64,000 nt of DNA from Podospora anserina (GCA_017654855.1 CM030335.1:1550001-1614000), one strand, 5' to 3'. Positions 18,501 to 64,000 are shown, numbered from the stretch's first letter. Notes: generated from the letters alone by a model not told the origin. A program made the numbers and translations.

Positions 18501-20074
18501 TTTGCGGATGCGATTATTGGATCACCCGAGGCTGGTCTTACCGTTGAGCAGCGCAAGAGAGTAACCATCGGCGTTGAGCTTGCGGCCAAGCCTGAGCTGC
18601 TTTTGTTTCTCGACGAGCCGACCTCTGGCCTTGATTCCCAAAGTGCCTTCAATATTGTTCGTTTCCTTCGCAAACTGGCTGCCGCTGGCCAGGCGATTCT
18701 GTGTACTATCCACCAGCCGAATGCCGCCCTATTTGAGAACTTTGATCGTCTCCTCCTTCTCAAGAGCGGCGGTCGCTGCGTGTACTTTGGGGATATTGGA
18801 AAAGACGCCCACGTACTGCGCGACTATCTGCGGCGGCACGGAGCCGAAGCCAAGCCCACCGACAATGTTGCGGAGTTTATGCTCGAAGCCATCGGCGCCG
18901 GCTCTGCGCCCCGAATCGGCTCGCGCGACTGGGCCGACATCTGGGTTGACTCCCCTGAGCTCGCCAACGTCAAAGACACCATCTCCCAGCTCAAGGAATC
19001 CCGCATTGCCTCGGCCACCGCAGCACAAAAGGACCCCTCCCTCGAGCGTGAGTATGCCTCCCCTCTATCCCACCAGCTCCGCGTCGTGGTCAAGCGCGCC
19101 AACCTCGCCCACTGGCGCACACCAAACTATCTCTTCACCCGCGTCTTCAACCACGTCATCATCGCGCTGATCACCGGCCTCACCTTCCTCTCCCTCACCT
19201 CCTCCCGGCAATCCCTCCAATACCGCGTCTTCGTCATGTTCCAAATCACCGTCCTCCCCGCCCTGATCATCGGCCAGATCGAAGTCATGTACCACCTCAA
19301 GCGCGTCCTCTTCTTCCGGGAACAATCCTCAAAGATGTACTCATCCTTCGTCTTCGCCTCCTCCCTCCTCATCGCGGAAATCCCCTACTCCATCCTCTGC
19401 GCCGTCCTCTTCTTCTTACCACTGTACTACCTCCCTGGCCTGCAGCCCGAGCCAGTAAGAGCAGGGTACCAATTCCTCATGATCCTTATCACGGAGTTTT
19501 TCTCTGTCACCATGGGCCAGGCTCTTTCTGCACTGACACCAAGCTTGTTCATCTCCTCCCAATTCGACCCCTTCATCTTTGTAACCTTTGCCCTCTTCTG
19601 CGGCGTCACCATCCCGCCGCCTCAAATGCCTGCCGGGTATAGGACCTGGCTCTATGAACTCAACCCCTTCACCCGTCTGATTGGAGGAACAGTCGTCACT
19701 GCTCTCCACGACCTCCCCGTTATTTGTCTCCCCGAAGAGCTCAACAACTTCACTGCGCCTATCGGTCAGACTTGCTCCGAGTACATGAGCAATTTCTTCA
19801 GCAGGGGCGGCTCGGGATATTTAGTTGGCGGCGGCAACAACACAAGCGACTGCAGCTACTGCGCCTTTGAGGTGGGCAACGAGTTCTTTGAGCCGTTGGG
19901 TTTCTCGTACGACTACAGGTGGAGGGATCTGGGGATCTTTATTGGGTTTATTGGGAGTAACATGGTTATTCTCTTCTTGGCGGTAAGTTGCCTTGGCTTT
20001 TTTTTTTGGTCAAAGAAACACATGCTGACCAGAGTGTTGTGCAGAGTCGATTCCTAAACTTCAATAAGCGGTAA
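15511..20074 (+). CDS. Full-size ABCG/PDR-family transporter (SNQ2/Bfr1-like)
   Basis: NBD1 GKPGSGCTT and VSGGERKRVS; NBD2 GASGAGKTT, LTVEQRKRVT, LFLDEPTSGLD; NBD-TMD-NBD-TMD order. Introns 17579-17637 and 19983-20044; ends SRFLNFNKR*. Confidence 0.95.
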
Positions 20075-34819: not shown

Positions 34820-37800
34820 ATGTCCTCCTCATCTATTTTCGAAGGCCCACATGAGCCTGTAGCTATCATCGGCATGGGTAAGCTGCAATCTCATCAGTCC
34901 TTTCTGGACTGGCCATGTAATACTAACATTTCTCACAGGCTGCCGGTGGGCCGGTGACATTCGTGACCCTTCAGGGCTATGGGACCTTCTGAAGAACAAA
35001 CGCGACGGCTGGCGCGAATTCAACCACCCTAGATTCTCTGCCAAGGGCTTCTACCACCCCAACAAAGAGCGCCCAGGATCCATGAGAACACCCGGTGCGT
35101 TTCTCATGGACGAAGATGCTCGCCTATTTGATCATTCCTTCTTCGGCATCACCGGGCGAGAAGCCGAAACCCTCGACCCGTCTCAACGGAAGCTGCTCGA
35201 AGTGGTGTACGAGGCTCTCGAGAACGGAGGGGAGACTTGGGAGAGTATTTCAGGATCACGAACCGGGGTGTATATCGGCAACTTCGCCCTCGATCACATC
35301 CTCATCCAGGCGCGGGATTGGGAGAGCCCAAAGTCATACGCTGCCACGGGAGCGGACACGAGTATTCTCGCCAATCGTATCAGTTACATCTTCAACCTTC
35401 ATGGTCCGAGGTATGCACTGGTCTTCCTAGAAATCAACGTTAGTCGGGTAATCAGGGGCTAATGGTTACCACAGTCTGGCCACAAACACCGCCTGCTCAT
35501 CCTCCATGTATGCCCTGCACATGGCCGTCAGTGCGATCCGCAGCGGTGACTGTGACGGCGCCATAGTCGCGGCAGCCAACTGGATATCCGATCCCAGCAT
35601 GCAGTTTGTGCTCGACAAGCTCGGCGCACTCTCGCCCACGGCGCGATGTCACACGTTCGACGCCTCTGCAGACGGTTACGCCCGTGGGGAGGGCTACGCC
35701 GCTCTATATCTCAAGAAATCCATCATAGCCGTGGTAGACTCGTTGCCAATTCGAGCCATGATTCGAGGCACCGCCATCAACGCCAACGGCCGGACAGGAG
35801 GCATCACCCGACCCAGCATAGCCGGACAGGAAGACGTCATTCGCGAGGCCTACAAACACGCCGGCGGCCTCCCCTTCTCAGACACGACATTCTTCGAGTG
35901 CCATGGCACGGGCACGCAAGCCGGCGACCCAATCGAAGTGACGGCCGTCGGCAACGTCTTTGCTTCCTCTCGATCAGACGCCCCGGAAGACCGGCTCCTC
36001 ATCGGCTCCATCAAGCCAAACCTTGGCCACACGGAAGGTGCAAGTGCCATCGCCTCGGTTATGAAGGTGGTTCTTTCCCTCGAAGCAGGCCAAATCCCAC
36101 CAACCTTTGGGATCGAGCAACTGAACCCGAGCATCGACTTTGCGGGAGCCAAAGTCGAAGTTGTCAAAGATGGCACGATACCCTGGCCGGAAGGAAAGCT
36201 CCGGCGCGCCAGCGTAAATTCCTTCGGGTTCGGCGGGGCCAACGGGCACTGTATTATCGACCACGTCAATGTGGTTCTCCCCGACTACATCAAGCCCGGA
36301 ATCTCTGGGGCCGGCACCTCAGCCAACGGCCATACCGCCAACGGGTATTCCAACGGGAAGGCCCACGAGGGCAACAACGGAGTGGTGACGCCACCTGCTG
36401 ACCACTCCCCTCTCACGACTAAACCGACAAAGACGACGAAGGCGGACGCCACCACGCGTGACCTCGTGCTTCTCCCGTTCTCGGCCCATACCGAGCAATC
36501 CCTCAAGTCGAATACTGCCGCCCTCTCTCGCGTCATCCACCAGTGGCCCCTTGCAGACATCGCCTACACCCTGAGCTCCAAACGATCACGTTTCCAGCAG
36601 CGTTCATTCCGCATCGTCGCCAAGAGCGATATCCAAACCGGGCTCGCCACAGACCGTCGCATCCTAACAAGCCCCCTGCGGCCAGCAAACATCGGATATG
36701 TTTTCACGGGTCAGGGCGCACAGTGGCATGCCATGGGCGCCCAGCTATTCGAGTACGCCGTCTTTCGCGCGGCGATCACCCACCTGGACCGGGTGATGGA
36801 TGCACTACCATCCCGGTCCACGTGGAAGATTTCCGATGTCCTGTCCGGCAACTGCGAGCCCGATCTCGTGCTGTCACCCCAAGTGTCCCAAGTGGCCTGT
36901 ACCGCCGTTCAGATCGGGCTCGTCGATTTGCTTGCATCGTGGTCTATCGCGCCTGCCGCAGTGGTTGGCCACTCCTCTGGCGAAATGGCAGCGGCGTATG
37001 CGTCGGGGTATATCACAGCTGCCGAAGCTATTACTGCTGCCTACTTTCGCGGTTTGGCCGTGTCGCAGAATAAGGCAAAGGGCGCCATGTTGGCTGTGGG
37101 TGTTGGGATGGATGCCGCGATGGAATACCTGGACGGAAAGGAAGACCGCATTAAGATCGCGGCGATCAACTCGCCCGGCAGCGTCACGCTGTCTGGTGAC
37201 GAGGATGCCATCGAGTCCCTGTCGGCCTCGCTCAATGAGGAAGGCGTGTTCAACCGTGTCCTTCGAACCGGCGGAAATGCCTACCATTCACATCACATGG
37301 TGGCACTGGGCGGGCAATACAACGACATGCTGTCAAAGGGACTTGAGCACATCGACAATATCGGACTGGTTGACAAGGCCCAGAGATACCCTCTCATCCG
37401 CTGGGTGTCGTCGGTGACCCCTGATGAGGCCATGGCTTTTGAGGTTGGTGCTTCGTACTGGAGAGCAAACCTTGAATCACCCGTCCGCTTCTCCGAGGCT
37501 GTCAGCGGGATGATGAGCTTGGAGGGTGACCAAGCCGTTGATATCTTGGTGGAGCTCGGCCCGCACCCGGCACTGAAGAGCCCGGTGGACCAGATATTGA
37601 AGAGTATCGGCAAGTCTGCACCACATGTCGCATCACTGAAGAGAGGAGAAGACAGCCGGGAGTCTGTGCTCCAGCTCGCCGGCACCCTGTTTAGCCTGAA
37701 TGCCGAAGTCGACTTGGTTGCAGTAAACGCAGTCGATGACGGCTTGCACGAGGGCCGGTGGAGTCTCGCGCACGGCTGTACGGCAGTCGATCTCCCCCCT

Positions 37801-40800
37801 TACCAGTACACATATGGACCGGTCAATTACTATGAGAGCCGGCTTAGCAAGGAATATCGACTTCGACAAGTCCTTAGGCACGACCTCATAGGCGCCCGGC
37901 TGCCCGGCGCCAGTAAGCTACGGCCTCAATGGCGGAATATTCTTCGACTTAAGGATGTGCCCTGGTTGGGCGACCACCGCTTGATTCCTGACGCCGTCTT
38001 CCCTGCGGCGGGCTTCATTGCTATGGGAATAGAGGCCGCCACGCAGGTGTACCACGAGCTCCCCAAGGCGTATGAGATCACGGGGTACTCGCTCCGCAAG
38101 GTTGACATCGAGACCGCCCTGCGGCTTCCCGAAGATGATCGTGGTGTTGATATCATCCTCAGCTTGGAACTGGCAGACACGGACGCAACGGTCAAATCGC
38201 CTGGCTGGTCCCGTTTCACCGTCAGTTCGGTATCCAGGGATTCCGATGAGTGGACGGAGCACTGCACAGGTCTCGTCAAAGTCGAGATCTCGGAGAAGCC
38301 TGCGGTGGCCAGCAAGATGGGCTCTTTAATGGACCCCCGATTCCCCGGCACACGTGCGTGGTACAACAAGTTCACCGAGATTGGCATCGGCTATGGTCCA
38401 ACTTTCCAGCCTCTCTCCGATATCCGGGCAGACCCCAACCAGAATTTAGCCCAAGCAACCGTGGCGCTGAACACAACGGACAACACGATCGAAGGAGGAG
38501 AGTCAAGCTATTCGCTCCATCCGGCGGCCCTCGACGGCACCTTCCAGCTAGGTCTCATTGCCTGCTACGGTGGCCAATTGGAACGTGCATACACTGCCTT
38601 CGTGCCTGTCCACCTTTCAAGCATGTATCTGAAAGCAGGACTCAGCCCGCATACACCCGCAACAGCCATAGCCCACGGTCAGACCCAAGGCCTGCGCGGT
38701 GCCTACATCAAGCTGCAAATGACTGACGAAAGCGGCAACGTTGTCCTGGACGTCGACACGCTGCGCTGTCTTAGTTTCAAGGAGTCCAAGTCGGACGAGT
38801 ACACCATGCAGTCCAAGAAGGCCCTGAGCAGCCCTTTCACCAGGCTCACCTGGAAGCCCGACATCCGTACTCTTAACAACGACCAGATCCGGGCACTGTT
38901 CCCCCCCCCACAGGAAAATAACCAAGGTGCCGCAAGCCTCGAGGTGGTCGACATGATCTGCTGCCTGGTCGTGGCGGACATCTACGAGGTATTCATCAAA
39001 AGCGCAACCAGCGTACCCCAGCCCAAAGGTGAACTCCGCCACTGGGTCTCTTGGCTGAAGTGGTGCGTCGAGGAAGACAATCGGGAGAATATGGTCGAAG
39101 CCAAGAGTCTTCCTGCCGACCAGCGTCACCAGCTGCTTAAGAAGCTGTACGTTGAGGCCGGTGATCGGCCCGAGGCACAGGCGGCTCGGAGACTGCACGA
39201 GAACATGGGTGAAATCCTCGCGGAGCGCAAGACAGGTATTGACGTCCTCGTGCCGGATGGACTCCTCACGGCGCTGTACGAGACAGGCCATGTCATTGTG
39301 GGCTCATACCCGCAGCTACGTAATGTCCTCGACTGCCTCGGCCATGCCAATCCCAATATGCGTATTTTAGAGGTCGGCGCAGGCACTGGCGCAGGCACAC
39401 GAGTAGCTATGGGGGCGCTGACAAGGTCGAACGGCATTAAGCGGTACGCTGATTACACGTTTACTGATATCTCGGCTGGTTTCTTGACGGCCGCTCAGGA
39501 GTTCATGTCAGGCTATCGTGATGTGAACTACGCTGTTTTGGATATCGGGGAGGATCCGCTCGCCAATGGGTTTGAGCCGGTCTACGATGTGGTCTTTGCA
39601 TGTGAGGCTATCCACGCCACGGCCAGTATGGATGTAACTCTCGAAAACTGCCGGAGGTTGTTGAAGCCGGGAGGCAGGTTAGTGCTGGTGGAGAGCACGC
39701 GTATGAGAGTGCTGCTGGGGCTGCTGTACGGTACTCTCACGGGTTATTGGCTGGGGGTTGGTGACGGTCGTACTGAGGGACCTTTCATGGACCTGGAGAC
39801 CTGGGACAGGCGATTGAGGAAGGCCGGCTTCTCGGGCACGGAGCTGGCCCTTGATGACTACAACCGCCCCCATAACACGACCTCCATCCTCGTTTCCACC
39901 CGTGTCGAAGAGTCTTACGTGGTCACCAACAAAGACACAGAGGCAAAGGAAGGTCCGGCCGTCGTGATCCATCTTTTGCACGGAGCCAATGGCCCGTCGC
40001 CGCTCTTGGAGCAAGTCTCCAGTGAGTTTGAGCGTTGTGGCGTCAAAGCTGTGGCGTCTTCGATCAATGAAGCGTCCGAAACAGTACAGCCCAACGCCCG
40101 CACCGTGGTATTCCTCAACGACGAGAATGACCTCTTTGACACTGAAAACGCCAGCCTTCTCAACTCGTTCCAGCATCTTGCCCGAAACACCAAGAGCATG
40201 GTCTGGTTGACGTCGAGTGGAATTGCCAAAGGTCGGGACCCTCGGGCCGCCTTCATGATTGGCCTTCTCCGAACCATCGCGACTGAGAACCCGGCCGGCC
40301 GTTTCCTCTCCATTGACATTGATGCGGAGACTTTCGGAGAACAGGATGATACTCTCATTCGCAACATCGTCAAATCCGAGCTAGCCCTGCAGAATGAGGA
40401 TGCCTCTGATGAAGAAGGCAGCAAGGACCGAGAGTTTGTCTGGCAGGACGGCTGTATGTGGGTGAGCCGGGTGGTCCCTGACACAGAGCTCGGCGTGTAT
40501 ATCGACCTAAGCAAAACACCTACGAGCAGAGGCTCTCAGATGGTTCCCATTGGCAGTCAGGGTCCTGTTCGTGCGGCATTCGAGACCCCCGGCATCCTTA
40601 CTTCGCTATACTTCCGAGCCTATACAGAGCTCTTGCAACCCATCCCAGCGGACTACGTTGACGTTCAAGTGGCAGCTGTGGGTGTGAACTGGAAGGATTT
40701 GGGCCTCACGTCAGGTCGATTTGACGCAACTGGCAGCAACCTGTCGTCAGAATACGCCGGCGTTGTGACCAAGATCGGTGCCGCAGTGGATGGTCTGTCT

Positions 40801-42807
40801 GTTGGGGATCGTGTCTATGGTGTCGGCAGAGGCCAGTTTGGAAACTACACGAGAGTTCCTGCCGCATTTGCACAAAAGCTCGAGCCAGGAGACATTCTCA
40901 CCGAGATGGCTACGATGCCACTGGTGTACATGACAGCCATCTATGCCTTTGACTATGTGGCACGGCTTAGAAAAGGCCAGAAGGTGTTGCTACAGTCTGC
41001 CACAGGCGGGCTGGGCTTGGCGGCTATTCAGGTTGCGCGGGCTCGGGGTGCCGATGTATTCGCTACTGTTGGCAATGCTGACAAGGTCTCCTTCCTTGTT
41101 GACACTGTGGGTATCCCGGCAGATCACATCTTTTCCTCTCGGGACCCTACGGCGCTATCTAATGCTGCCAAAGCAACCGGCAGGGGCGGCTTTGATGTTA
41201 TTCTCAGTACGGTTGTCGGAGGAGATTTCCTGTGCGAATCCCTTAAAGCGCTGGCTCCCATGGGACATCTTGTCGACGTTGGTCGGCTCGACGTACTTGA
41301 AGCCAAGGACATTGGCTTGGAGCACTTCCAGAGGAACGCCACTCTGACCTCGTTCGATCTTAATGTCCTCCTGGACAATGATCCAGAGCTTGGACGCGAG
41401 TTGATGCAGACAGTCAATGACCTTTATCGATGGAACGTTATTGCGCCGATTCACCCCTTTGCCGTTCACGATGTGTCGGAGCTCGACCGAGTCTTGGTGG
41501 GCCTGTCCAGGGGCACGCACATTGGAAAACTGGTGGTGTCATTCGAGAATCCAGCCTCTCTGATCAAGCTTGTCCAAGAGCCGCCAGCAGCGAAGTTCGA
41601 CTCTGAGGCACGCTATGTTGTCACAGGAGGTCTGGGCGGGCTTGGCCGAGCCATTATCAAGTGGATGGTCAGTCGTGGCGCTCGTGACTTTGTGGTACTT
41701 TCTAGGCGTGGTATCAACACCCCTGCTGCAAAATTACTGGTAAAGGATCTTGAGTCGCAAGGCGTTCGTGTCGAGGCAGCGGTCTGTGATGTGAGCAAGC
41801 GAGAGAATGTCGTGAAAGCGGTCCACAACGCTGCATCGGGCGACCGGGCTGTCAAAGGAGTGATCCATGCAGCCATGTCATTGACAGATCTCTCGTTCGA
41901 CAAGCTGACCATTGATCAATGGCGAGATGGGTTTGCTGCAAAGGCTTTGGGTACCCTCAACCTGCACGAAGCCACTCTTTCGTTACCTTTGGACTTTTTC
42001 GTCATGATCACGTCGACCGAGTCCATCTGGGCACCACCAACTCAAGCGGCATATATCGCTGCAAACAGCTTTCAGGACTATTTTGCCCGCTACCGTCGAC
42101 GGCTCGGCCTTCCCGCGTCCACAGTATCGTATGGGTTGGTGGCTGATGTCAAGTCGGACTTCCTTCACAACTCAGTTGGCACAGATGACATGTACGTACG
42201 TAACAAGACCATGACAATCACAGAGCATCAGGTCCTCGCCCAGCTGGAGCCGGCCTTCTTGCCTGTGGAGACAACTTGCTGGGTTGGGCAGGATCAGGAC
42301 CCGTTGTCAGAGGCCAATATCTTGACATGTCTCGATCCGGTCGGGTTGGCTGAATTGGCGTCGATGAACGATCTTATCCCACGCTGGTATCGCGACGGGC
42401 GCGTGTCGGTTATCATGCAGGCAATGAAGGACGCGCAACGACAAGCGAGCGGGGCAGATGCGGCTCAGGATGGCGCTGGCGGAGCAGGCAAGTCGGCTGT
42501 GGCCCGACTGCGGTCGTCATTCTCGGAGGGAATCAAAGGAGGAGCTGGCGCCCGGGCCATTACGGTCGCGCTCGTGACCGAAGGCGTGATACAGACTGTT
42601 GCTGGGATGTTGTTTATTGATGCGTCAACAGTGGACCCTGCCAAGAGTATTGCCGAGCATGGCGTTGACAGCCTCATTGCGGCTGAACTGCGGAGCTGGT
42701 TCCACCAGGCGTTGAAGACGAACCTCAAGATGGGGGAACTGCTGGACGCACAGACGAGTATCAAGACACTGGCTGAGAATATTGTAGATGCGGCGTTGAA
42801 GGAGTAG
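34820..42807 (+). CDS. Highly reducing iterative type I PKS (KS-AT-DH-cMT-ER-KR-ACP)
   Basis: EPVAIIGMG|CRW; KS NTACSSS, ECHGTGT, GHTEG; AT GHSSGE and AYHS; DH WLGDHRLIPDAVFP; MT LEVGAGTG; ER QSATGGLG; KR TGGLGGLG and YIAAN; ACP GVDSL. Introns 34878-34938 and 35411-35474. Confidence 0.97.
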
Positions 42808-49585: not shown

Positions 49586-51805
49586 TCAAAACCAACTAAA
49601 TACACTCATATCAGTTGTCGGTGTATTCTCAGCCAAGAACTCTACTTCGGCATAGTCTGGCGTCTGTAGGCAATTCCACGCCTCCGACAGCTGAAGTGCG
49701 GGATCAGTGACGACGATTGGGTCGGTATCCAGTCTCATTAGTGTGTTGGCCTCGCTAACCGTGGTATCACTGATCTTCTCTAACTTTCCAAGAAGGCGTG
49801 TGAGCGTTCTTGCGCCCACCTCAGCCATGTGGTTCATATCGGCAAGAGTTTGTAGTCGGCCCAGCGCACTCCTTACAGCCTGGATGCACTCGTCCTTAGC
49901 AACGTCAGTGACGCCTACTCCGAAGGGATCTGAGGACTTAGTCATGCTGGTAGTGGACCCCCTTCGGAGTGTGGTCTCTGCTTTTGGTGGGAAGTTTCCG
50001 TCGGAGCAGAGACACAAAAGGACCACTGCAGCCTCAAAGGTTGGGATGATGAGACTCGCATGGCGTGTGTGTGAGCCACCCATCATCAGATGGAGGGCAG
50101 AGACACCTTCAAGTAAGTTTAGTGCTATGACGGCCAGCGCTCGCTTGTGGGATGAGAGCAATATCTGCTTGTAGGCTGGGAGTTGCTGAATCGAGTTGGG
50201 CTCCTGAAATAGCGCAGGGCGGAAGTTGTGGCAAAGCGACTCCAAGATGGCCATATGAAACATCTGACGCTGTAACGGTAAGGTTGGAAGACGGGCATCC
50301 CACTTGTCGCATGTGTCAGGGTAGAGAGCAAAGACAGGTGGTATTTCGGGAAGAAACTCGCTGCAGAACTTCTCGTATCGTTCCTCTGCAGCAATGGGGT
50401 CGTATTCAGTCGCGTTCCCGGAACCATGAGTCCGCCAGAAGTTGGCTAGCTGTGCCTCGAGCACGCGCTCGGTGAACAGGTCAGGAGCATCAGCTTGAGG
50501 GACGTCGTCGAGGCCAAGCACAAGGTGCATTCGAGGCATGGTGTCAGGGTTCAGTGCGTCTGGTAAGAAAGGGATTTGATCCAGACGTTTAGATAGCACA
50601 CTGTCCCAGACATAAAGATTGCAAAATGTCCTCCGTCTCATTTCCTTTTCGAGCTCGTCCATGTTGGGGCTGTAAAAACCTGATGTGGCATCAACATGCA
50701 GCCCAATCCTCTGTGCTACTCGAACAGCGCAACTTAGCGCTTCCCAGTGCGCATTTGTTCGGCCCTGGCACAGGGACCTCAGCCCAGCAAAAGCGACGTG
50801 CTGAACCCGTATAAGAGACCCGCGTGCGTCGAGGCGTGAGCAGATTGGTGTGAGTGCATCGGCCACTCTATCACAGGACTTACGGATGTCAGCCAGCGGC
50901 ACTCCCCTGATGCTGTCGATAGTACAGGTCGGCGAAGGGAGGAACTGAGAGGCATAGGAACATATCCTGAGAACCAGCACTGCAAACTCGATACCGTAGG
51001 CAGTCGATGTCCGCTCCATTTCCCACCATTTCTGATAATGTGAAAGAAACCAAGGCGGATATATGAGCTGATCCATCCTGGGTTGAAGCCTTGTCAGCTA
51101 CTCTTTTGTTGAATAGGTAACGTGGTTGGACAAATTGCATCGGCAGAACTTACCAGCTAACCTCCGCGATGAAATACCGTACCAGAAAGTCGAGGATGGA
51201 CCGATTAGGCATTGAAGCGAACAGCCTTTGGGCTATGATCGCCGTTTCTTCTGGCACTGGCGCGGGCTCGCTGCTGTGCCCCGTTGCATCGTCATCTGCC
51301 CCTAGCTGTGAGGCGTGGTAAGCGTGAGAAAAGACGTCTGACTCGGACGCAACTTACCTTTCTCACCAAAGCAATCGTGTTGGATTTGCTATTCTCAAAA
51401 TACCCGAAAACCTCCGCAAGGGATGTCGGTTCTCTCCCCTCTTTGAGACCCCCCCAGTTGATCGTGTCCTGGACTGAAGATGAAGCAGAGGGCCTCCTTT
51501 CAGCCTGAGCCTCCTGTTGGCTATCATCTGTTTGAATTTCGTCATCATGAAGGTGGTCCTTCTGGGTTTGGGGTGGACTGGGTGGTAATGTAGCTTGAGA
51601 AGGGTTGTAGGCGCATTGTTCGGGGCGTCGACGGCGGCTGCAATGGTTACATGGATACTGCCGGTTGCACTGTGACGGGATAGCATGTCAGTGAGGGACG
51701 TGATGCCAAGATTCCCTGGTATGTGCAATTGCAACCAACCTTCTGTTTCCTGGTGTAACAAGGGATACATGATGAAACCACCCGTTTTCTCTGGCTTGAT
51801 TGCAT
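49586..51805 (-). CDS. Zn(II)2Cys6 transcription factor with fungal-specific middle domain
   Basis: Spliced SCIPCYTRKQK|CNRQYPCNHCSRRRRPEQC; AQRIGLH..EKEMRRRTFCNLYVWD. Start may be 51877. Confidence 0.92.
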
Positions 51806-54037: not shown

Positions 54038-56183
54038 ATGGACGATCCAACTCCCGCCAACAACACGGAAATTGCTGCTTTGGGTGATGGGAGAGATATG
54101 GAGAAAGTGGAGAAATCCTCCCCGTCTCGTTCCTCGTCCCCTCAGCAAGCTTTGACTGCAGAAGATGAGCCGCAACGAAAAATAACCGGTGCCCGCGTGT
54201 GTTTACCTACATGACCCTGGTCGCAGCTGCTGGCAAGACGTCACCGTACTGACAATTGGGCAGTGGGCAGCTTTTGTTATCAGCACCTTGACGGCTATCT
54301 TCGTCTACTCGTTGGACAACACTATCGTTGCCAACATCATTCCGGTACACATTTCACCATTGTGTTCCCATAAACCACCCCCTACTGACTCGTGATCGTG
54401 AAAAGGTCGTTGTTAACGATCTCAACGGAGTTGACAAGCTACCATGGCTGTCCGTCGGGTAAGCACGAGTCCGATTTCCGGCACCATTTCCTGATCCGAA
54501 GGCTGATGGTACCCCAAAAACGACAGATTCATGATCGGGGGGATGGCAACTATCCTCCCATTCGGAAGACTTTACACAATGTATGATTCCAAATGGGTTT
54601 ACATCATATCTTTTGTCTTCTTCCTCGCCGGATCGGCACTTTGCGGCGCAGCACCAAACATTGATGCTGAAATCATTGGTCGTGTCATGGCCGGTGCCGG
54701 TGGGAACGGGATGTATGTCGGTCTTCAGGTGCTCATGTCTATGCATACTACGGATAAGGAGCGTCCCACATACCTTAGCTACGTGTAAGTATGCGCTGCT
54801 CAATGGCCTTATTTGCTATCATCCATATTGATATGGTCGACTGGCGCATTTAGCGGAGGCACCTGGGGCGTAGGAACCGTTTGTGGTCCAGCTGTCGGAG
54901 GCGCCTTCTCGTTGTACAACTGGCGATGGGGGTTCTACATCAATCTCCTTTTCGGGGCTATCCTTCTGCCAACTTATCTCATCGTCATCCCCTCGGCCAA
55001 CCCGTTGCCGAATAAAAAGCAGTCTGAAAAGCTCGCTCTCATGGACTGGGTTGGCGTCATCATCAGCATTGGCGCCATGGCAACCATCGTCATGGCTATC
55101 AATCTAGGCGGAGTGCAATTCCCCTGGAACAGTGGCTCGATCGTCGCATTATTCGTCGTCAGTGGTGTTCTTTGGATCGCATTCGCTCTCCAGCAGTCGT
55201 TTTGTCTCTTCACGACGGAGCATAAACGTCTGTTTCCTGTGCCCATGCTAAAGCAGAAGATGCCGGTATTGCTTTTCATTGCCTGCGCTGGCGGCTCTGC
55301 GGCTTGCTACATGTCTACATACTGGATTCCCATCTACTTCCAGTTTTCCAAGGGAGACTCAGCAATCTATACGGCTCTTCGACTGCTGCCGTTCATCCTC
55401 GCGCTTATCACGATAATGCCCGTGAGTGGACACCTGATAAGCAGATGGGGTTGGTATAAACCTTGGTTCGTGGGAGGAAGTGCTTTGACTCTTATCACAG
55501 CTGCACTCATGGGTAAGTTCCAGCCATCTGTGACGTTCCTTTGACCAAGGCTTTGGTGCCTAACGCGACATCTAGCCCACTACATCAATGGGGGCACACC
55601 GGTTGGTGCCTTTTATGTCATCGAGCTGTTCTTGGCCTTTGGAATTGGCGCCTATGCACAAAATGCATTTGCCGTCGTTCAGTCAGTTGTCGCCCCCAAA
55701 GACGCACCCTCTGGGCTCGCCCTCATGCTCGTTGGTAAGCTTCATCATCATACAAACCTTTCTGATTACTTTGCCCTTCATGACTGACATTATTGTAGGG
55801 CAACTGACGGGCATCACGTTTGGTCTCTCCATCAGTGGTGCCGTATTCATCAACACAGCAACAAGCGGACTTCATGATGCGCTACCACAGATTCCCGTCG
55901 AGGAGTTGTCGCATGTCGTTGCTGGAGCTAGCAACCAGGTCTTTGAGTCATTGTCACTCGAGCAACGATCACGCGCCCTCGAGATTATTGTCCAGTCCTG
56001 GAATAAGACTTTCATCTGTGTTTACGTCGCTGCTGCAGCCAGTTTAATTTCGTCGGTTTTCTTCAAGGTAAGCAAGCACTTGAAGGCAGTCTGGGGAGAA
56101 GTCATGAGACACAAGAGCTGACTCAAAACTACTTCGTCCAGAACACCAAAGCCAATGTCAACACCGCCGCTGTGGTTCTATGA
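54038..56183 (+). CDS. MFS drug:H+ antiporter (DHA2-like, toxin efflux type)
   Basis: SLDNTIVANIIP, KLPWLSVG, GSALCGAAPN, IGRVMAGAGG, GPAVGGAF, WRWGFYINL. Multi-exon; ends NTKANVNTAAVVL*. Confidence 0.92.
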
Positions 56184-56681
56184 GCGGGTGTGGGAGAAGA
56201 ACGTGAGCATTGGGCGACCAGAAGTCAGTCCTGGGCTTCAAGTTGAATCTGTCGAGGATTGTGGTCAGAAAAGAAGGTGCACAGATGGGTTGTTCCGTAT
56301 TGCCACCAAAACACTGTTGTGTGGTATGATTTTACAGTGCTACAGGAAAAGCAATTTGTGTTTGAAACTTAGACTGCTTAATAGAATTATCGTCCTTGGA
56401 CTCCCTGAACCCTGAGCCCCTGAATCACTTGTACCAAGCCGCTAATTCCAAGGCTGGCCCCCCTTTCCAGCGTCCCAGTTGCCAAAGACGAGATGATTTT
56501 GCGAATTACAAGTGTATTGTAGCATACGTCAAGAACCAGGGGGATTGATTGTGACTGATTCAGAGATAATCGACCTCACACACATAAAGAAGAGTGGATG
56601 TCCACAAACAACGCGCCTTCAGCCTGCCACAACGATGATTTTCCACCGCTTTCCCATGGGCTATCTCATTCTCCCCTAGAC

Positions 56682-57674
56682 TTAATACTCAAACTTCTGC
56701 CCAACCAACTCCTCAGTCAGCCTCCAGCACCTATCCACCTCCCCCTTATCATACACCGCATGTCTCGCAACAGGTTCCACAACCTCCCCATTCTGCAAGT
56801 ACGCCGGCCCTCGCCCTGCCAAATCCGGATCCAGCGCAGCAATAAGAGGCGTAGCACCAATCTGCTCATACGTCTTGAACCGCGGCTCATCCCCAACAGT
56901 GAAGCTAAACTCCTGACCTGTGTTGCGCTTGGTGGTGGGCAAAACATCACTGTAATCATCCATCACCAAGTGTGACCCAAGTTTAGTATCAAGATTAGAC
57001 CCCGGGTGGCAAGCAAAAGCCACCACACCGTGGTCCTTCAGCCGGTCTGTCAAACCATACGCAAACAGGATCTGCGCTGTCTTGGCCTGGCCGTAACCTG
57101 TCCAGATGTCGTAGGTTTTGCCGTTGGAGAAGGAGACGTCGTCAAAGCGGACAGGGGAGATTTGGTACCCTACGCTGGTGAGGTTGATGACGCGGGCTCC
57201 GTAGGGGCTCTTGGCACCGGTGAGAAGGGCGGGGGTGAGAAGGTTCGTCAGGAGGAAGTGTCCGACGTGGTTGACGGACATTTGCATTTCTATGCCTTGC
57301 TTGTCGAGGGTGTATTTCTTGAGGGCCATGTTTCCGGCGCTGTTGATGAGGACGTCGATTTTGGATTTAGTAGCTGTCAGGATTTCCTGTGCCGCGCGGC
57401 GGACTGAGTCATGGTTGGAGAGGTCGAGTTGGATAAATGTAGCTTTGATTGATGGGTCTTGTTTCCGGATGGCTGTGATCACCGGGTGGACGTTTTCAGC
57501 GGTGCGGGAGGCGATCAGAAGGTGAGCTGGTGATGCTTTGGCGAGTTCGATGGCGATTGAGCTCCCGATACTGGGTTGGCCGGCGCCAGTGATGACGAAG
57601 GTGCGTCCTTTGACTTGGGGAGCAAAGGCTGCAACGGCTTGCTCGCTGGTGACAGTGCCAGCAAAGACAGTCAT
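56682..57674 (-). CDS. Short-chain dehydrogenase/reductase
   Basis: VITGAGQPSIG, LDLS, DVLINSAG, NHVGHFLLTNLL, catalytic YGQAK, HPG. Confidence 0.93.
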   Translation of the reverse strand: MTVFAGTVTSEQAVAAFAPQVKGRTFVITGAGQPSIGSSIAIELAKASPAHLLIASRTAENVHPVITAIRKQDPSIKATFIQLDLSNHDSVRRAAQEILTATKSKIDVLINSAGNMALKKYTLDKQGIEMQMSVNHVGHFLLTNLLTPALLTGAKSPYGARVINLTSVGYQISPVRFDDVSFSNGKTYDIWTGYGQAKTAQILFAYGLTDRLKDHGVVAFACHPGSNLDTKLGSHLVMDDYSDVLPTTKRNTGQEFSFTVGDEPRFKTYEQIGATPLIAALDPDLAGRGPAYLQNGEVVEPVARHAVYDKGEVDRCWRLTEELVGQKFEY

Positions 57675-57907
57675 GCTGAGAGATACAAGTTAAGGGCGGG
57701 TTCCAGGTTTGCTGTAGTAATTCTGTGCCACAGAACGCTAGGGGTTGCAAACTAGAGACATATTACATATCTGTGGTTTAAAACCGCAGGCCATTCTGGA
57801 ATCCGGCAATAAAGGCCATGCCTGCATTGCCGGATGCCTTGATGTGGCGAAACCACTGTTGGGTGCCTGTAGAATTGATGCTGTGCATCACTGAACCGAA
57901 TGTTGGA

Positions 57908-58135: not shown

Positions 58136-59343
58136 CTAAAGGCCAGATATCTTGCCTTTTGAAGAAATGTTATTACCTAAATCCGGCAAGCCTCTCTCTT
58201 GCAGTAACTTTGCATTCCAGCTTGAAAACATATTCATTACATCAATACCTAGCCTAGCCCCATTCTCCAGTTGACAACAGTGTTTGAAAGTGAAGTTGAC
58301 ACCACAAAAAGAGTGTGGCCGGCCATTTACTGCAATCATTTCCCTCAGTGCTTGACCTGGGAGGCTCAGACCCAGGTTTCCCTTCCCCCTCTTGAGCACT
58401 TGGCTCAGCCGGCAACTCAACCACCAGGTTCTCGTATTTCTTTCCAGCAAGCTCATGTGCTGGGTAATATTTGTTCGCGACCAGCTCATGGGCTGGGCTC
58501 TTGTTAGCCGCAGTTCATGTGTTGGTAACGAAACAAGGATAGTGTTGGTGAGTTTAGCGACATCATGAGTCTCGACATCCTCGCCAGAGATGTCCGCCTG
58601 CTTAGTTTTATTCTGCCGGATCATGGAAAGCCTAGTTGTCAAGATTGCCAGTACAATGAGTACAGCAGAGCCAAGTCCGACTCCTACCCTAATTCCTGTT
58701 TTCGCAGTCTGGGAAAGTTCGTTGCTGCTGTCAAGAGCCTCGTTTGCCAATGTTTCCGGCGCTGTGACTGTCCCTATTGTGGATGTCGTAGGCGTCATGG
58801 AAGATGCATCTGGGTGTGGATTGTCTTGGATATAAAACATTCCACTGTCACTTTTCCAGTTCGGGTCGTTAGATCGACGGAGCCGAAGTCTAAATTCCCG
58901 GCTGTCGAGGAGAATTGAGTTGTTGATATTGTCATGGTCCCCGATGTCCCACCACTCCTGGACGAGAAGGTCGGATGAATAGTAGATGTCCTCTACCAAC
59001 GTAAACTTTCAGCGACAGTTTGAACACCGGTTCTGGTCAACAATGACGTACTGAGCAAAGTGCCAATCAGGTCCGATCCTGAGTCCCAAGGTCCAGGTCG
59101 TAAGTGCCAAATTTCAATCGTCAAGGAATCGGAGTATGCCATCCCAACGCTCCATTCAATAAGAATATTACTGCCGAGAGCAAAGCGTTGCGAAATCCCA
59201 GTCAAATCATCGAAAGGTGGATTGATCCAGGTCACGCCCAGTGGTTCAACAGCCGACACCACATGCTGCACTAGAAATGCCAGGCTACCCGCCTGTTGAA
59301 TTGGTTTGAAGAGCCGGACTCTCATGACTTTTTTTGGAAACAT
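58136..59343 (-). CDS. Single-pass type I membrane protein (paralog A); cytoplasmic tail probably frameshifted
   Basis: Signal-like N-terminus, WINPP, S/T-rich stalk, TM AKTGIRVGVGLGSAVLIVLAIL. Intron ~59051-58994. HEL/ELPA repeats continue in another frame after about 58510. Confidence 0.7.
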
Positions 59344-59898: not shown

Positions 59899-60814
59899 TC
59901 AGTTCCCCGCCTCCACCGACGTAGGCTGAGTAGCCAACTCAGCCGCGTTGCTATGACCATTAACGCTGTGCACAACGAAAGGGCTTGAGTAAAGCGGTGG
60001 TTTGCCAACATCATGAACCATTTCCTCATTCGGACCGCTGGCGAAATCCGCCTTGCTGTCTCTGCCCCGCCGCTTCAAGACAAATCTTGTCAGAAGAACA
60101 GACAAAGTTATCAGCAGCAGGGACCCAAGCCCAACTCCAACGCCGATACCGATCTTCGCTGTGTGAGGCAGATCGCCGTTGTTGACTGGGGTAGAGGGAT
60201 TAGACGTCGGGAAGACTGTACTGGATATCGTCGGTTGTGTCAACGTCGAAAATGTCTCTGTTGACGTCGCCGATGTCATCAGGGATGTTTGGGCTACGTC
60301 CTCCAAGATAAACGCCCGGCTCCAAAGCGAGCCATTCTCGTAACCGTACTTTTCGATCATGATATCGGCATGGTTACCGGGGGGCGGATCAGTAATAACC
60401 AGCACGAAGCGTGGGTTGTTGGCAATGACTTTGCTGTCGATGCTGTCACCCTCTCCGATGACCCACTGGAGCGTCTGTTGGTTCTGTGCGTCTTCTGAAA
60501 GCTGAAAGGTCAAAAGACTTTCTCCTGCCATCATCATGGGCTTTTATGAGTGGTAGGTACTCACGAGCTAGAATGCCAATAACATCACCATCCCTCTTCT
60601 GCGTCCACTGCCGAACTTCGAGCGTGATTTTCCGGAGCCCAGCCGCTACCTAGGTGACCTGGATCTTTTGCCCGATGACATAGTGTTCTTGCAGATCTTG
60701 CGACTCATACGGTGGGTTGGTGAAGCGGTCGGCCCGTGCAAGCGATGTATATAGTACCCAAAAGATAATAAACGAGACTCCCCCTGGCACACCAAATGGG
60801 ATAGCGACGTCCAT
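59899..60814 (-). CDS. Single-pass type I membrane protein (paralog B) with in-frame TAG at 60652-60650
   Basis: Signal peptide, FTNPP, GQKIQVT*VAAGLRKITLEVRQW, intron 60564-60495, S/T stalk, TM AKIGIGVGVGLGSLLLITLSVLL. Confidence 0.7.
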
Positions 60815-61475
60815 CTTGGAGCTACCCAGAAGGAAAAAGAGCAAAGAGCGGTAGAACAGATTGCCTGGTGGGACTGGGTTTAATATTGGTTAAATCTGGG
60901 TCCATCTTTGGCTCGGCGCTCAGCAATACACAACAGCATGGCAGTGAAGCTCTTCACAGCCAGACCAGCAGAGAGGAAGAAGATATTGAATGCTGACTTC
61001 TATCCCTGTCACGGTCTAGGCCCCGTATCATCCCGCGAAAAAAGCTCCGAAAAGCTCCCAGAGATTGAAGTGGCGCTCCAAAAAAAGAATCAGACCCAAT
61101 GAACAGGTGATACAATGAAGGTAGTCGACCTCCCGATACATCTGTTGTGATACACCGGGATGCAACACGAAGACCGAGTATCAGCAAAGATCCCGGGAAA
61201 CCCCCTGTTCTGTGTCTACCTTCAGCTGGTTGCCTTGAACCTCGAGAAAGGGTGGACTACCATCTAATCACGGATTCTGTTTCATATATCGTGTTCGCAT
61301 TTTCATGAAATTTACTTGTCGATGACAATCCCTCAATCACTTCCATCAGCTTGGTATAAAACAACAAATGATAGGGAATCTGTGAGAACCTTTCAAAATC
61401 TCTCCACATTACCCCCTTCAGCACAATACAGGATGTAGGTATACAAGAAGATCAATAGATGTTATCTCCAGTGGC

Positions 61476-63011
61476 TCATGGAGAGCGAGCCATGTTGCCC
61501 TCCGACATGTTCTTGTCCATCATATGGCCCATGGACACATAGCGCGACAGCCAGCTGACTTCACGAGCCTTGTGGCCATTGCAACCCTTACATCCTTTGC
61601 GAGCCTGCTCAAGACCGATCATGCCGGCGCTGACACCGTTCTTCTGACCAGCGGTGGCAGCAAGGCCAGTCCAGCTCAAACGCTTGCTACCCTTCTTGGT
61701 CTGAGAGGCGGCATAGTAGTTGGACATGGCAGCAATCTCCCGTTTCTCGGCGCAGTCGCGATCGATCATCATGTTGCTGTCCATGCAGCTAGGAGTGCCC
61801 GAGGAAGCACCCATCGACATTTGGGCAGAGAACATCATCATCATGTAGTCCTCCATCATCAGGCCGGAGCACATCATCTGCATGTTCATGGCGTCTTGGC
61901 TCATCTTGCCCATAGACATAGCCTTCTTGTTGTCCATGATGAAGACGCCACCGCAGAAACGACCGCTCATGTTTTGGCGCACGCTCTCAAGAACACCCAT
62001 TTGAGCGAAAGGATCAGTCGTCATGGCGAAGTGCTCCATGTGAACTCCCTTGCGGTCATTCATCATCATGTCCATTGACTGGTGGTGGGCAGGCTCGCTA
62101 TCCATGGTGGATTCACCACGGGGCATCATGAACTCGCAGGCAGCGGCACCGAAGGAGTAGATCTCGAGCTTGCACATCTTCTCAGCGGGCAGGTCGGAGC
62201 AGAGCTGAGCCATGGCCTGGGAGACGAGGACGGCACTATCGTTGTGGCAAAGGACGACGCAGCGGTGCATAGAGTCGTCGAGGAGAGCAGTGCGCATCTG
62301 GGCGTAGAGGTTTCTGCGGACTTGGCTGGGCATCACCATGCAACGCTGGAGCATCATGCACATCATGTCGAAAGGCATACCCCAGGTGGGCATGCAGATG
62401 CACATCATGGGACGGTTAAACATGCGAGAGAGCATAGGAAGGGCTTGCTGATGGCAGTGGCGAGAGCTTGTGTCGGTTAGTTGTGGTCTCTAAACACACC
62501 AGGCAAAGAATGAGAGGACAAACCTCATACCCATCCCGCCCATGAACATCCACTTCTCATTGTCCATCTCCGGGCCCATCATCCAACCCTCAGACTCCAT
62601 GGGGCACATGTGCATCTGCTCTCTGCCGTTGAGCATCCAGCACATGCCCATGACCATCAAGGCACAGGTGCACATCCACATGGCGAACATGGCACCAGGC
62701 ATCATCATCCAGAGCGGGACAGCCATAACCATCATGCACATCTCCATGCACGTGAGCATGGTGTGTATCATCATGTCTCCCATGTCGGCCCAGGACATAT
62801 GCTTGCGCTGGGTGAGCATGGCCCAGCACATGTTGGGCATCATTCGCATCATCTGCATTATTTCCTGCCACATCATTGACCACATTGGCTGCTGAGATCG
62901 AGGGGTGGTACCGCAGGCGCCATCGCAAAGTGGTGGGATGTAGGTGACGGGGGTAGCCATCATCGACTTCATGGCGGCGGGCTTCATGTTCTTGTTGGCC
63001 ATCATGGGCAT
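61476..63011 (-). CDS. Extremely Met/Cys-rich protein with degenerate alpha/beta-hydrolase-like domain
   Basis: ATG 63011; intron 62523-62467 (GTTTGT..ACTAAC..AAG) gives about 492 aa. Motifs YIPPL, NEKWMF, FNRP, VVLCHNDSA, KLEIYSFGAAA, EHFA..DPFAQMGVL, VSWLSRY. C-ending codons dominate. Confidence 0.88.
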
Positions 63012-64000
63012 GATGTTGGGGTATGAACCCGTTGTTGGTGAAACCGCAAGAGATTCAGGTGGCGAGAATTGGCGCATGACCTTAAGGGCGAGTAAAACGA
63101 ATGTGGTGTAAGGAGCGTGGTGGTGAGGCAACGAACATGATGGCGCAATCTGTGATGATCGACTCGTTATAACTTTGAGGCAACGCGTCTTGGTGATTTG
63201 TGCCACTTGTTTTTTCCTCCATTCCAAACAGTGAATTCCCTGAGCCGTGCAGCCGTCGCAAGAGAGACGGACTGATACCGACCACCTGGCATTCCAGGGT
63301 AGCCAGCATCTGGCGGGCAAGCAACGTTAGCAAAAATGTAGGCAATTTCCAGTCTGCTTGTTCCAAGTTCCTAGCGTGTTGACTTATCAGCAGTCGCGTA
63401 CCTTTCCTGAGAAAGACGAGGCGCGTCTGGACCCGACAGAGCAGACCAAGCCAAGTAAGGGAGAGAATGCGGGGGTAAAATTGTTCAATAGGTCAAGATA
63501 AGTAAAATATGAGCCAACTTTATCTGCTCTTGGAACAATGACAGACATTCCGTTGTGCAGAGCTGACATCCTTTTTGATCACAGTAACTGTGGTCAGACC
63601 CCCACGTCGACCACACTGTCAAAGAAGTTGCATGTTTCCAAAGTCGGTCGTCCCAGAGCCGTTCCTTCCTCTACTTCACAGTCGACACGTCTCCCTTCTT
63701 GCCCAAAGTGACACACACGGGACTTGACAACTTCCGAGCCGGAGACACTGACCCAGAGTCTCCACCGACCTCTGGAGGGGTTTCTTCTGTAAGTCTCCCA
63801 CCCCTAGGGACATCATCCCGCCCTCCCCCTCACGGCGCCTGAACTCATCAAGACGAGTCTTTCAGGCCCGTGCTCGCTCGTCACAGAGAAGTAGGTGATA
63901 GCTTCAACCATTACCGGAAACCGTTCTTGGATGTCACCAGCTAATTACTGAAGTTTGTGAACACCGCGGGGATTTTCTCCCCTTCTGCGCGATCCCATCG

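Follow-up and report, generated by a model that had tools for sequence, protein, structure and literature searches.

The stretch of Podospora anserina DNA analysed here (64,000 nucleotides of CM030335.1, called the window below) contains a minus-strand gene with two coding exons (63077-62524 and 62466-61476) and a product that is extremely rich in sulfur. Read from the ATG at 63077, the product has 514 residues, including 101 Met (19.6%) and 25 Cys (4.9%), so that 126 of the 514 residues carry sulfur. An earlier sequence-only reading of this DNA had started the protein at the ATG at 63011, and its counts from there were reproduced exactly: 492 residues, 100 Met (20.3%) and 25 Cys (5.1%), with 47 of the Met among residues 1–162. 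The in-frame ATG 22 codons before it, at 63077, is nevertheless the likely start because orthologues begin at the matching place in the alignment; a start could be assigned at 11 of 12 orthologue loci. Against a background Met frequency of 2.3%, the binomial tail for the Met content is about 1e-60, and the second-highest Met content among the 72 open reading frames of at least 150 residues in the window is 4.0%. The frame was described earlier as intact, spliced and biased in its codons. This holds, with a GC3s of 0.71 and an intron (62467-62523) that is bridged by contigs in all four runs examined, from four studies. The runs represent 4 of the 24 listed and are presumed to be RNA; none of the listed runs is recorded as such. 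The parts of the gene are as follows.

62524..63077, minus strand: coding exon 1, residues 1-185, with the N-terminal tail, helix 65-93, the hydrophobic hairpin and the first core strand
62467..62523, minus strand: 57-nt intron, GT..AG, with the branch point CTAAC, absent from the contigs of 4/4 runs
61476..62466, minus strand: coding exon 2, residues 185-514 and the stop, with the alpha/beta-hydrolase core and the C-terminal part
61280..61475, minus strand: 3' untranslated region, its extent reached by 3/4 runs
63310..63401, minus strand: 92-nt intron inside a long 5' leader, seen in 1/4 runs
63082..63309, minus strand: long leader with four upstream ATGs, three of which share one stop 5 nt before the main ATG

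The peptide encoded by the upstream frame in the leader is not conserved among orthologues, and the long leader form may be a poorly translated isoform lying over a shorter, TATA-driven one. At position 63229, the window has C and the contigs of all three covering runs have G, which is either a strain difference or an assembly error. The gene is most likely Pa_4_3770, judging from sequence matches and gene order: its homologue cluster includes a member tagged QC761_403770, and the order of genes here agrees with that of the published beta-glucosidase Pa_4_3750 and the efflux pump Pa_4_3790. The best named match is a Podospora comata protein that is 98% identical. In a literature search, Pa_4_3770 was not named in the main text of any paper found.

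The sequence-only reading had described the protein as being built on a dead alpha/beta-hydrolase scaffold, and both the fold and the loss of catalysis are borne out. The predicted structure (pLDDT 81.6, pTM 0.84) recovered the alpha/beta-hydrolase fold, with a best VIA-align Z of 11.5 and an rmsd of 3.8 over 219 residues (Obc1), and nearly all titles among the top 50 matches listed were hydrolases of this fold. Foldseek returned only weak hydrolase matches, the best with an E of 3e-3 and none at 1e-3, and Pfam and PDB sequence searches with the protein or its alignment gave nothing significant. The curated cut-off of Pfam DUF676 (PF05057) was not reached; weak matches to it were found for 2 of the 99 dead-branch rows (best E 0.026) and 2 of the 70 rows of the triad-intact paralogue (best E 0.0026). 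The atlas clusters bear the DUF676 name automatically, and there is no common Pfam family. A profile search collected 936 relatives, many of which have HSQGG, Asp and GH..HYL. The motifs quoted earlier (VVLCHNDSA, KLEIYSFGAAA, EHFA..D..GVL) are all present, and three segments of the core can be placed against the catalytic triad.

62232..62264, minus strand: nucleophile elbow HNDSA, HSQGG in triad-intact paralogues, with Ser changed to Asn260 (alignment)
61995..62042, minus strand: EHF..D motif with the retained Asp336, invariant in 99/99 rows; the role as the catalytic acid is suggested by its position (alignment)
61842..61934, minus strand: Met-rich loop at the position of the paralogues' catalytic His (GH..HYL), with the His absent (alignment)

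Thus, the nucleophile Ser is lost, as HNDS had suggested, and the catalytic His is gone as well. The His motif GH..HYL occurs in 67 of 72 HSQG proteins and in 0 of 127 proteins of the dead set, in which many members read HNLG or HNTG at the elbow. According to the alignments and the model, the protein is a member of the alpha/beta-hydrolase fold and is not predicted to be an enzyme. The dead branch consists of Sordariomycete and Leotiomycete proteins, mostly with 1–6% Met. Since most members have this ordinary content, the loss of catalysis predates the sulfur load; the branch is old and mostly Met-normal, and catalysis was, by this comparison, not lost for sulfur loading.

The same genome contains a paralogue with an intact triad and approximately 2% Met (L002:757-2577; C6 near 3751984), which is probably Pa_5_8620. 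Over the hairpin and core, it aligns with the target at an hhalign probability of 99.6% (E 2e-24), and the predicted secondary-structure elements of the two proteins come in the same order. The listed Neurospora crassa orthologue of Pa_5_8620 is NCU06117. The paralogue belongs to the unnamed Pezizomycotina HSQGG hairpin hydrolases, which are automatically named “DUF676 domain-containing” and are homologous to the target; they keep Ser-Asp-His and approximately 2% Met and, unlike the target, have neither the four conserved Cys nor the excess of TEA sites described below. According to the sequence comparison, the target arose by duplication from an active hydrolase and the Ser was lost afterwards. 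A model of the target in complex with the paralogue scored 0.67, and the best of three controls scored 0.00. Contacts agreed to at least 63% and the pLDDT of the partner was 67 or more; the interface between the two homologous chains is pseudo-symmetric. Of 78 solved pairs, 51 passed the threshold score, as did 2 of 108 mismatched ones (39 of 65 and 2 of 126 in eukaryotes); alignments were unused, zinc was included and unscored, and close relatives such as these lie outside the calibration of the tool. Because the modelled interface joins equivalent helices of both chains, the score may reflect a homodimer of the family and not a specific pair. The modelled interface is more conserved than the rest (0.74 vs 0.65, p 0.04) and has fewer Met (4/38 vs 82/414).

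Outside the triad, the notable segments are a hydrophobic hairpin, the helix before it and several conserved Cys.

62628..62792, minus strand: helix-Pro-helix hydrophobic hairpin, residues 96-150, with 19 Met and 5 Cys among its 55 residues; the active paralogue has a homologous hairpin
62799..62885, minus strand: helix 65-93, with 10 Met in 29 (model and alignment)
62910..62942, minus strand: YIPP..DGxCG motif with Cys55, conserved in 30/31 covering rows (alignment)
61950..61961, minus strand: RFCG with Cys356, 99/99 rows (alignment)
61569..61598, minus strand: CxxCxGH, with Cys477 in 95/96, Cys480 in 92/98 and His483 in 71/98 rows (alignment)

Of the membrane or lipid-droplet location proposed earlier, the membrane-type hairpin itself is present; the hairpin is a probable membrane or lipid-body anchor, and hydropathy is what suggests this placement. 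The CxxCxGH motif is without a counterpart in all 72 HSQG proteins and, in the alignment, makes a candidate metal or redox site. Met density is highest in the hairpin (35%), the preceding helix (34%) and the loop of the lost His (30%), and Met is scarce in the segments with conserved Cys (0/21 and 4/80).

The Met residues are laid over the protein with little regard to site. At the positions of the Met sites, the commonest residues of eight outgroup proteins are Leu (28%), Met (17%), Val (10%), Ile (8%), Ala (7%) and Ser (6%). The outgroup residue is hydrophobic at about two thirds of the sites. Together, Leu, Ile, Val and Phe are down to 12.5%, while a sum that includes Met stays at 27–34%. 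The sites are interchangeable: of the 86, just 2 are Met in 90% or more of the 99 homologues, and 33 are Met in fewer than 30%. Core Met content follows loop and tail Met content (rho 0.79) and core Cys content (rho 0.80) across 94 rows, which are related and include only two supported independent pairs. The earlier statement that the sequence is no simple repeat agrees with the Met-Met spacings of 1–4, which equal those of local shuffles. Spacings of 2 and 3 were observed 23 and 21 times, against 21.9 and 22.0 in shuffles, so there is no excess of the MXM/MXXM (Mets-type) pattern; spacing 5 is slightly raised (31 vs 22, p 0.014, one of seven tests). Taken together, this is a property of the bulk sulfur content, superimposed on a core that is conserved.

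Among 99 homologues, the Met share ranges from 1.5% to 25%. It is 18–20% in named Podosporaceae, 15–21% in Rhypophila, Lasiosphaeris, Schizothecium and two further Podospora lineages, 3–10% in named Chaetomiaceae, and 4–6% in Colletotrichum and Coniochaeta. On a tree made from columns poor in Met, seven changes are needed for the 21 high-Met rows of 96, and a single clade of these 21 rows is rejected (p-AU 1e-4). This tree leaves out three gappy rows, the high-Met cut-off was chosen after the values had been seen, and the changes are counted without a direction of gain or loss. High-Met lineages share new Met columns approximately 2–6 times above expectation. Low-Met lineages match the outgroups in 67 of 170 cases at Met columns and in 49 of 122 at control columns, which is no excess. 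In lower-Met orthologues, GTG is used for Val at Met columns in 31 of 89 cases, compared with 32 of 197 elsewhere (p 0.0007), and ACG for Thr in 17 of 38, compared with 48 of 198 (p 0.016); Leu codons show no difference there. The excess of GTG and ACG indicates that Met erosion occurs, and Met loading appears, from these comparisons, to wax and wane within Sordariales.

A second origin is seen at the loci L111 and L083, which have 10–18% Met per exon among Leotiomycete-like proteins with 1–7%; placing them in one clade with Podospora is rejected (p-AU 6e-77). On the present trees, the loading arose after catalytic loss and at least twice, in Sordariales and in a Leotiomycete-like lineage. It is found only in the copies that appear catalytically dead: Met reaches at least 8% in 0 of 183 triad-intact proteins and in 61 of 150 proteins without the motifs (338 examined, the rows being related), and the highest value in a triad-intact protein is 6.1%. 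No dead-branch member was found by word-limited searches in Neurospora and Sordaria, where it was possibly lost; both have the active paralogue. As a separate observation, two fungi of the HGTG branch (L111:7865-9700, L117, L119, L083), which share 65% nucleotide identity over one stretch, carry the independently Met-loaded copy, and the C-terminal tail encoded at L083:630-1190 consists of repeated C-x-H-x6-C-x-x-C units, metallothionein-like, up to the contig end.

Several trivial sources of the Met load were considered. A genome-wide Met shift was rejected, since the paralogue used as a control does not follow the target (rho 0.12 in 28 taxa, where it keeps 1.3–3.6% Met) and the neighbours of L111 have at most 4.4% Met. 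CpG deamination or RIP as a source of ATG and TGY codons was rejected as well, as there is no TpG or RIP signature. Compared with nine control open reading frames, GTG, CTG and ATG out of frame are less frequent here, and mutation bias as the source of the load is excluded. It might be argued that constraint was simply relaxed after catalytic loss, or that mutation was biased, and that the Met content has no function. The coming and going of Met would suit this, as would the GTG and ACG traces of recent loss in lower-Met orthologues. However, dN/dS in divergent pairs is approximately 0.1–0.35, well below 1, which indicates purifying selection; the Met content of neighbouring genes and of paralogues is normal, and in many dead members it has stayed at 1–4%. 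In addition, Met has a single codon, so drift cannot bring it to 20%. A functionless load is consequently very improbable. The proposal of a pseudo-enzyme selected for sulfur can be divided at this point. Selection on sulfur content is borne out because of the purifying selection, the lack of mutation bias, the paralogue control and the second origin; sulfur loading as the cause of catalytic loss is not.

A family of Met-rich genes in the P. anserina genome was also considered and rejected, as no comparable open reading frame was found in a pattern screen with a sensitivity of 65–70% at best. Four Met-triplet patterns gave 349 places; two earlier Met patterns had also been screened, the second of which was swamped by microsatellites. 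Twenty regions picked by eye contained no open reading frame above 9.4% Met, and the 118 frames of at least 200 residues in 20 further stretches reached at most 8.6%. The simulated sensitivity was 65–70% for a gene with 20% Met and 33–38% for one with 15%, and the screen is not equivalent to a rank within the proteome. A separate side observation is a Gly/Met low-complexity tail with 22 Met in 100 residues on an RNA-binding-like frame (L006, C1 near 6446324).

The upstream region of the gene contains the following elements.

63220..63225, plus strand: CATTCC, AbaA/TEA-type site (motif match)
63290..63295, plus strand: CATTCC, AbaA/TEA-type site (motif match)
63546..63551, plus strand: CATTCC, AbaA/TEA-type site (motif match)
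63464-63469, minus strand: CATTCT, fourth AbaA/TEA-type site (motif match)
63167..63171, minus strand: TATAA approximately 94 nt before the start, a putative promoter element
63184..63189, minus strand: GACGCG, a CGCG-core element, CGCGTC being the second-ranked shared 6-mer

The CGCG-core element is presumably MCB/StuA-like, and TATAW lies at -94 to -128 in five of eight orthologue groups. CATTCC is the top 6-mer in the 500 nt upstream of these eight groups (19 observed, 2.2 expected); with flanking A/T, it occurs 18 times against 1.1 expected and a maximum of 6 in 2000 shuffles. The motif was found after looking and was not set beforehand. It recurs on both strands in distant dead-branch loci. 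There are 3.2 TEA-type sites per 600 nt in 12 non-HSQG loci and 1.0 in 20 HSQG loci (p 9e-5), a comparison that covers 32 of 80 given loci and in which 4 of the 12 non-HSQG loci are close kin. CATTCY is given as the AbaA site in PMC7531577 and PMC3769392. The genome has one TEA-domain gene (L123:1-1500, C1 near 1589679), with five CATTCY in the 1.5 kb before the domain, as self-regulation predicts. We infer from these motifs that dead-branch genes may be under AbaA/TEA control. Against such control, 22 of 25 TEA sites in the eight groups face one way and contain ATG. The leader (63082-63428), with its intron and four upstream ATGs, overlaps TEA sites, and three or four of the RNA contigs cross the sites, including the two proximal ones; the sites therefore lie inside at least some transcripts. 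With the generally known motifs, no site for CYS-3, Cbf1 or Met31, no copper element and no AP-1 site was found in 1 kb upstream. A FarA-type CCGAGG was set aside, since it occurs close to the gene in 6 of 11 upstream regions as a flank of a TEA site and is absent from the window.

Published expression data are available for Pa_4_3770. During mycelial ageing, it is expressed flatly at 166–285 tags per million from days 6 to 14, with an increase of only 1.19-fold with age (PMC3869774). It differs by at most 1.4-fold between mating-type strains (PMC3125171) and changes by at most 1.45-fold in the incompatibility reaction, in which Pa_5_8620 is induced 4.55-fold; no N. crassa orthologue is listed for it (PMC3689799). 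It is absent from the list of putative GRISEA targets, on which its neighbour Pa_4_3760 is present (PMC3869774). The gene name is absent from the small supplementary files of PMC3495915, PMC5349155 and PMC6709928 and from that of PMC8699231, an absence without bearing on copper, paraquat, the sexual stage or mitochondria.

What might the sulfur be for? Our preferred reading, a tentative one that could well be wrong, is a pseudo-enzyme under developmental control, anchored to membranes, that came to serve secondarily as a bulk store of sulfur. It has an old and a new layer. In the old layer, a duplicate of a hairpin-anchored alpha/beta-hydrolase lost Ser and His, as the alignments indicate, and would have come under an AbaA/TEA-type promoter, whose sites are observed and whose control is suggested by them. 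The duplicate would have been kept as a folded, membrane-anchored, non-catalytic protein that, according to the model, probably forms a homodimer or pairs with the active paralogue. In the new layer, selection in some lineages put Met into every tolerant position, and Cys into some, throughout the hairpin, core, loops and tails; such filling would be tolerated because no active site is needed. A bulk reserve would be the simplest use of loading that ignores the site. It would be laid down on ER or lipid-body membranes in spore-forming cells or spores, and proteolysis at germination would release the sulfur, with oxidant scavenging as a side benefit. A reserve is favoured because buried, loop and Cys sites would all count, the promoter points to development, and stores made from dead enzymes have precedents. 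Its weak point is abundance. Tags of the gene make up approximately 0.02% of the total; if protein follows mRNA, its share of the protein Met in the mycelium would be well under 1%, which is too little for a mycelial store; this modest and flat expression argues against storage in the mycelium and is not what a spore-only gene predicts. No sulfur-control site of the CYS-3, Cbf1 or Met31 type lies in the 1 kb upstream.

The Met-dense hairpin, the helix before it and the lost-His loop could instead form a membrane oxidant sink or redox switch, in which Met facing lipid and at the surface would be oxidised to the sulfoxide and restored by Msr enzymes, so that lipids close by are protected, or in which the fold would loosen and free a partner hydrolase under oxidative stress. 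Such a role would be workable at modest abundance, the conserved CxxC could act as a thiol switch, and the accumulation of Met in the respiratory chain is described as an antioxidant adaptation in PMC10967345. The same paper states, for animals only, that Cys is avoided in oxidative settings, whereas here Cys rises with Met (PMC10967345). This parallel rise weakens a pure sink for reactive oxygen species, as modest, flat mycelial expression weakens storage. Moreover, the roughly two thirds of Met sites facing outgroup hydrophobics are in many cases probably buried, the 1 kb upstream has no AP-1-type site, and the transcript hardly responds to age (1.19-fold) or incompatibility (at most 1.45-fold). 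We consider this role somewhat unlikely. A joint rise of Met and Cys at buried and loop sites alike, at modest abundance, would be expected of a sensor of sulfur cost: with 126 sulfur residues, efficient translation would require charged Met and Cys tRNAs, and the amount of protein would report sulfur status and gate a partner hydrolase or a developmental step. This would also cover why only the non-catalytic partner is loaded and why the modelled interface is conserved and Met-poor. However, most dead-branch members have an ordinary Met content, no Neurospora orthologue was found in word-limited searches though the active paralogue is kept there, and Met shortage also limits initiation on all mRNAs, so that a sensor seems unlikely. 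The same low probability attaches to a broader version, a folded protein serving as a sulfur gauge whose synthesis, or stability towards oxidation, would be set by its 25% Met and Cys; by dimerising with the active paralogue under AbaA, it would tie a lipid-hydrolase or sporulation step to sulfur, having been tuned up independently in two fungal classes.

Thioethers and thiols could also bind Cu(I), Ag(I), Zn or Cd in a soft-metal buffer. The four conserved Cys and the His are specific to the dead branch, and the independently loaded L083 protein ends in the metallothionein-like repeats. On the other side, there is no MXM/MXXM excess, His makes up only 2.5%, core Met could not easily reach a metal, and the 1 kb upstream has no copper-response element of the generally known type; the gene is also off the putative GRISEA list of PMC3869774. 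We therefore regard a metal buffer as improbable. Of the three uses named in the sequence-only reading (storage, oxidant sink and copper or silver binding), the last has the least support in this gene.

The earlier statement that no characterised fungal protein is like this one stands: in the literature searched, which excludes most subscription papers, there was no description of a fungal protein with a whole folded domain loaded with sulfur. Fungi are known for sparing sulfur in their proteins. By analogy, the target perhaps works as ABHD5 does, or as a Met-rich store or scavenger would, but it is not a member of any of these groups. ABHD5/CGI-58, a pseudo-enzyme of lipid droplets, is a duplicate of an alpha/beta-hydrolase with an inactive Ser position and is a membrane regulator, as the target may be (bioRxiv 2025.05.06.652485; PMC10014278). 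The two are likened by description, with no sequence link found, and the target is also without the His. The change in ABHD5 is reportedly from Ser to Asn; in the dead branch, HNLG or HNTG stands at this place in many members. The lipase under ABHD5 control is of the patatin type and unrelated, and ABHD5 itself is not known to be rich in Met. Known Met-rich stores include maize delta-zeins, 2S albumins and insect Met-rich hexamerins, and fly yolk proteins derive from dead lipases. With approximately 20% Met, plus its Cys, the target resembles seed sulfur stores, and a dead enzyme turned into a store has a precedent; however, storage proteins have unrelated sequences, are secreted or packed into protein bodies and are very abundant, whereas the target has a membrane hairpin and modest mycelial expression. 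Bacterial MrpX, which works with MsrPQ, and the mitochondrial respiratory-chain proteins show site-blind Met enrichment, partly in membrane helices, as the target does. In contrast to MrpX-type scavengers, the target gains Cys, is a folded pseudo-enzyme of 514 residues instead of a short peptide, and has no reductase gene among its scanned neighbours. Mets-motif copper proteins (the Ctr1 ectodomain and the like) are thioether-rich as well, but the Met of the target is spread through a folded core, and nothing points to regulation by copper.

Met has taken the place of about half of the large aliphatic residues while the fold was preserved; this happened at least twice, and only in dead copies. 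On a single scaffold, it amounts to a natural series of Met contents from 2% to 25%, for which the active paralogue with its normal Met content is a control. The fungus is a tractable model, so allele swaps could directly test whether Met in proteins serves for storage, as an antioxidant or as a sensor. In addition, the gene itself is an unstudied candidate target of AbaA, and it may form an enzyme and pseudo-enzyme pair with the paralogue.

The scanned neighbours encode an SDR, an MFS transporter, small membrane proteins and a GH3 protein. There is no methionine sulfoxide reductase gene among them, which is weak evidence in fungi. A sulfur gene cluster was looked for and rejected; one small membrane-protein gene is shared as a neighbour at 4 of 21 orthologue loci. 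This gene (L042:4499-5377) lies approximately 5 kb upstream and also adjoins the orthologue in four metagenome loci; two of the four metagenome copies have a short Met-rich stretch. Two similar small genes for Ser/Thr-rich single-pass membrane proteins lie in tandem on the minus strand at window positions 58136-59008 and 59899-60543, one with a weak Mid2 match (E 0.048). A highly reducing PKS with a methyltransferase domain occupies 35452-42807 and is followed by a fungal transcription factor (49586-51097), an MFS efflux pump (approximately 54800-56200) and an SDR (56682-57689), so that the stretch just downstream of the gene (35452-57689) is a possible secondary-metabolite cluster. Finally, a gene for a PDR-type ABC transporter, in two long frames, is found at 15430-20057 of the window.
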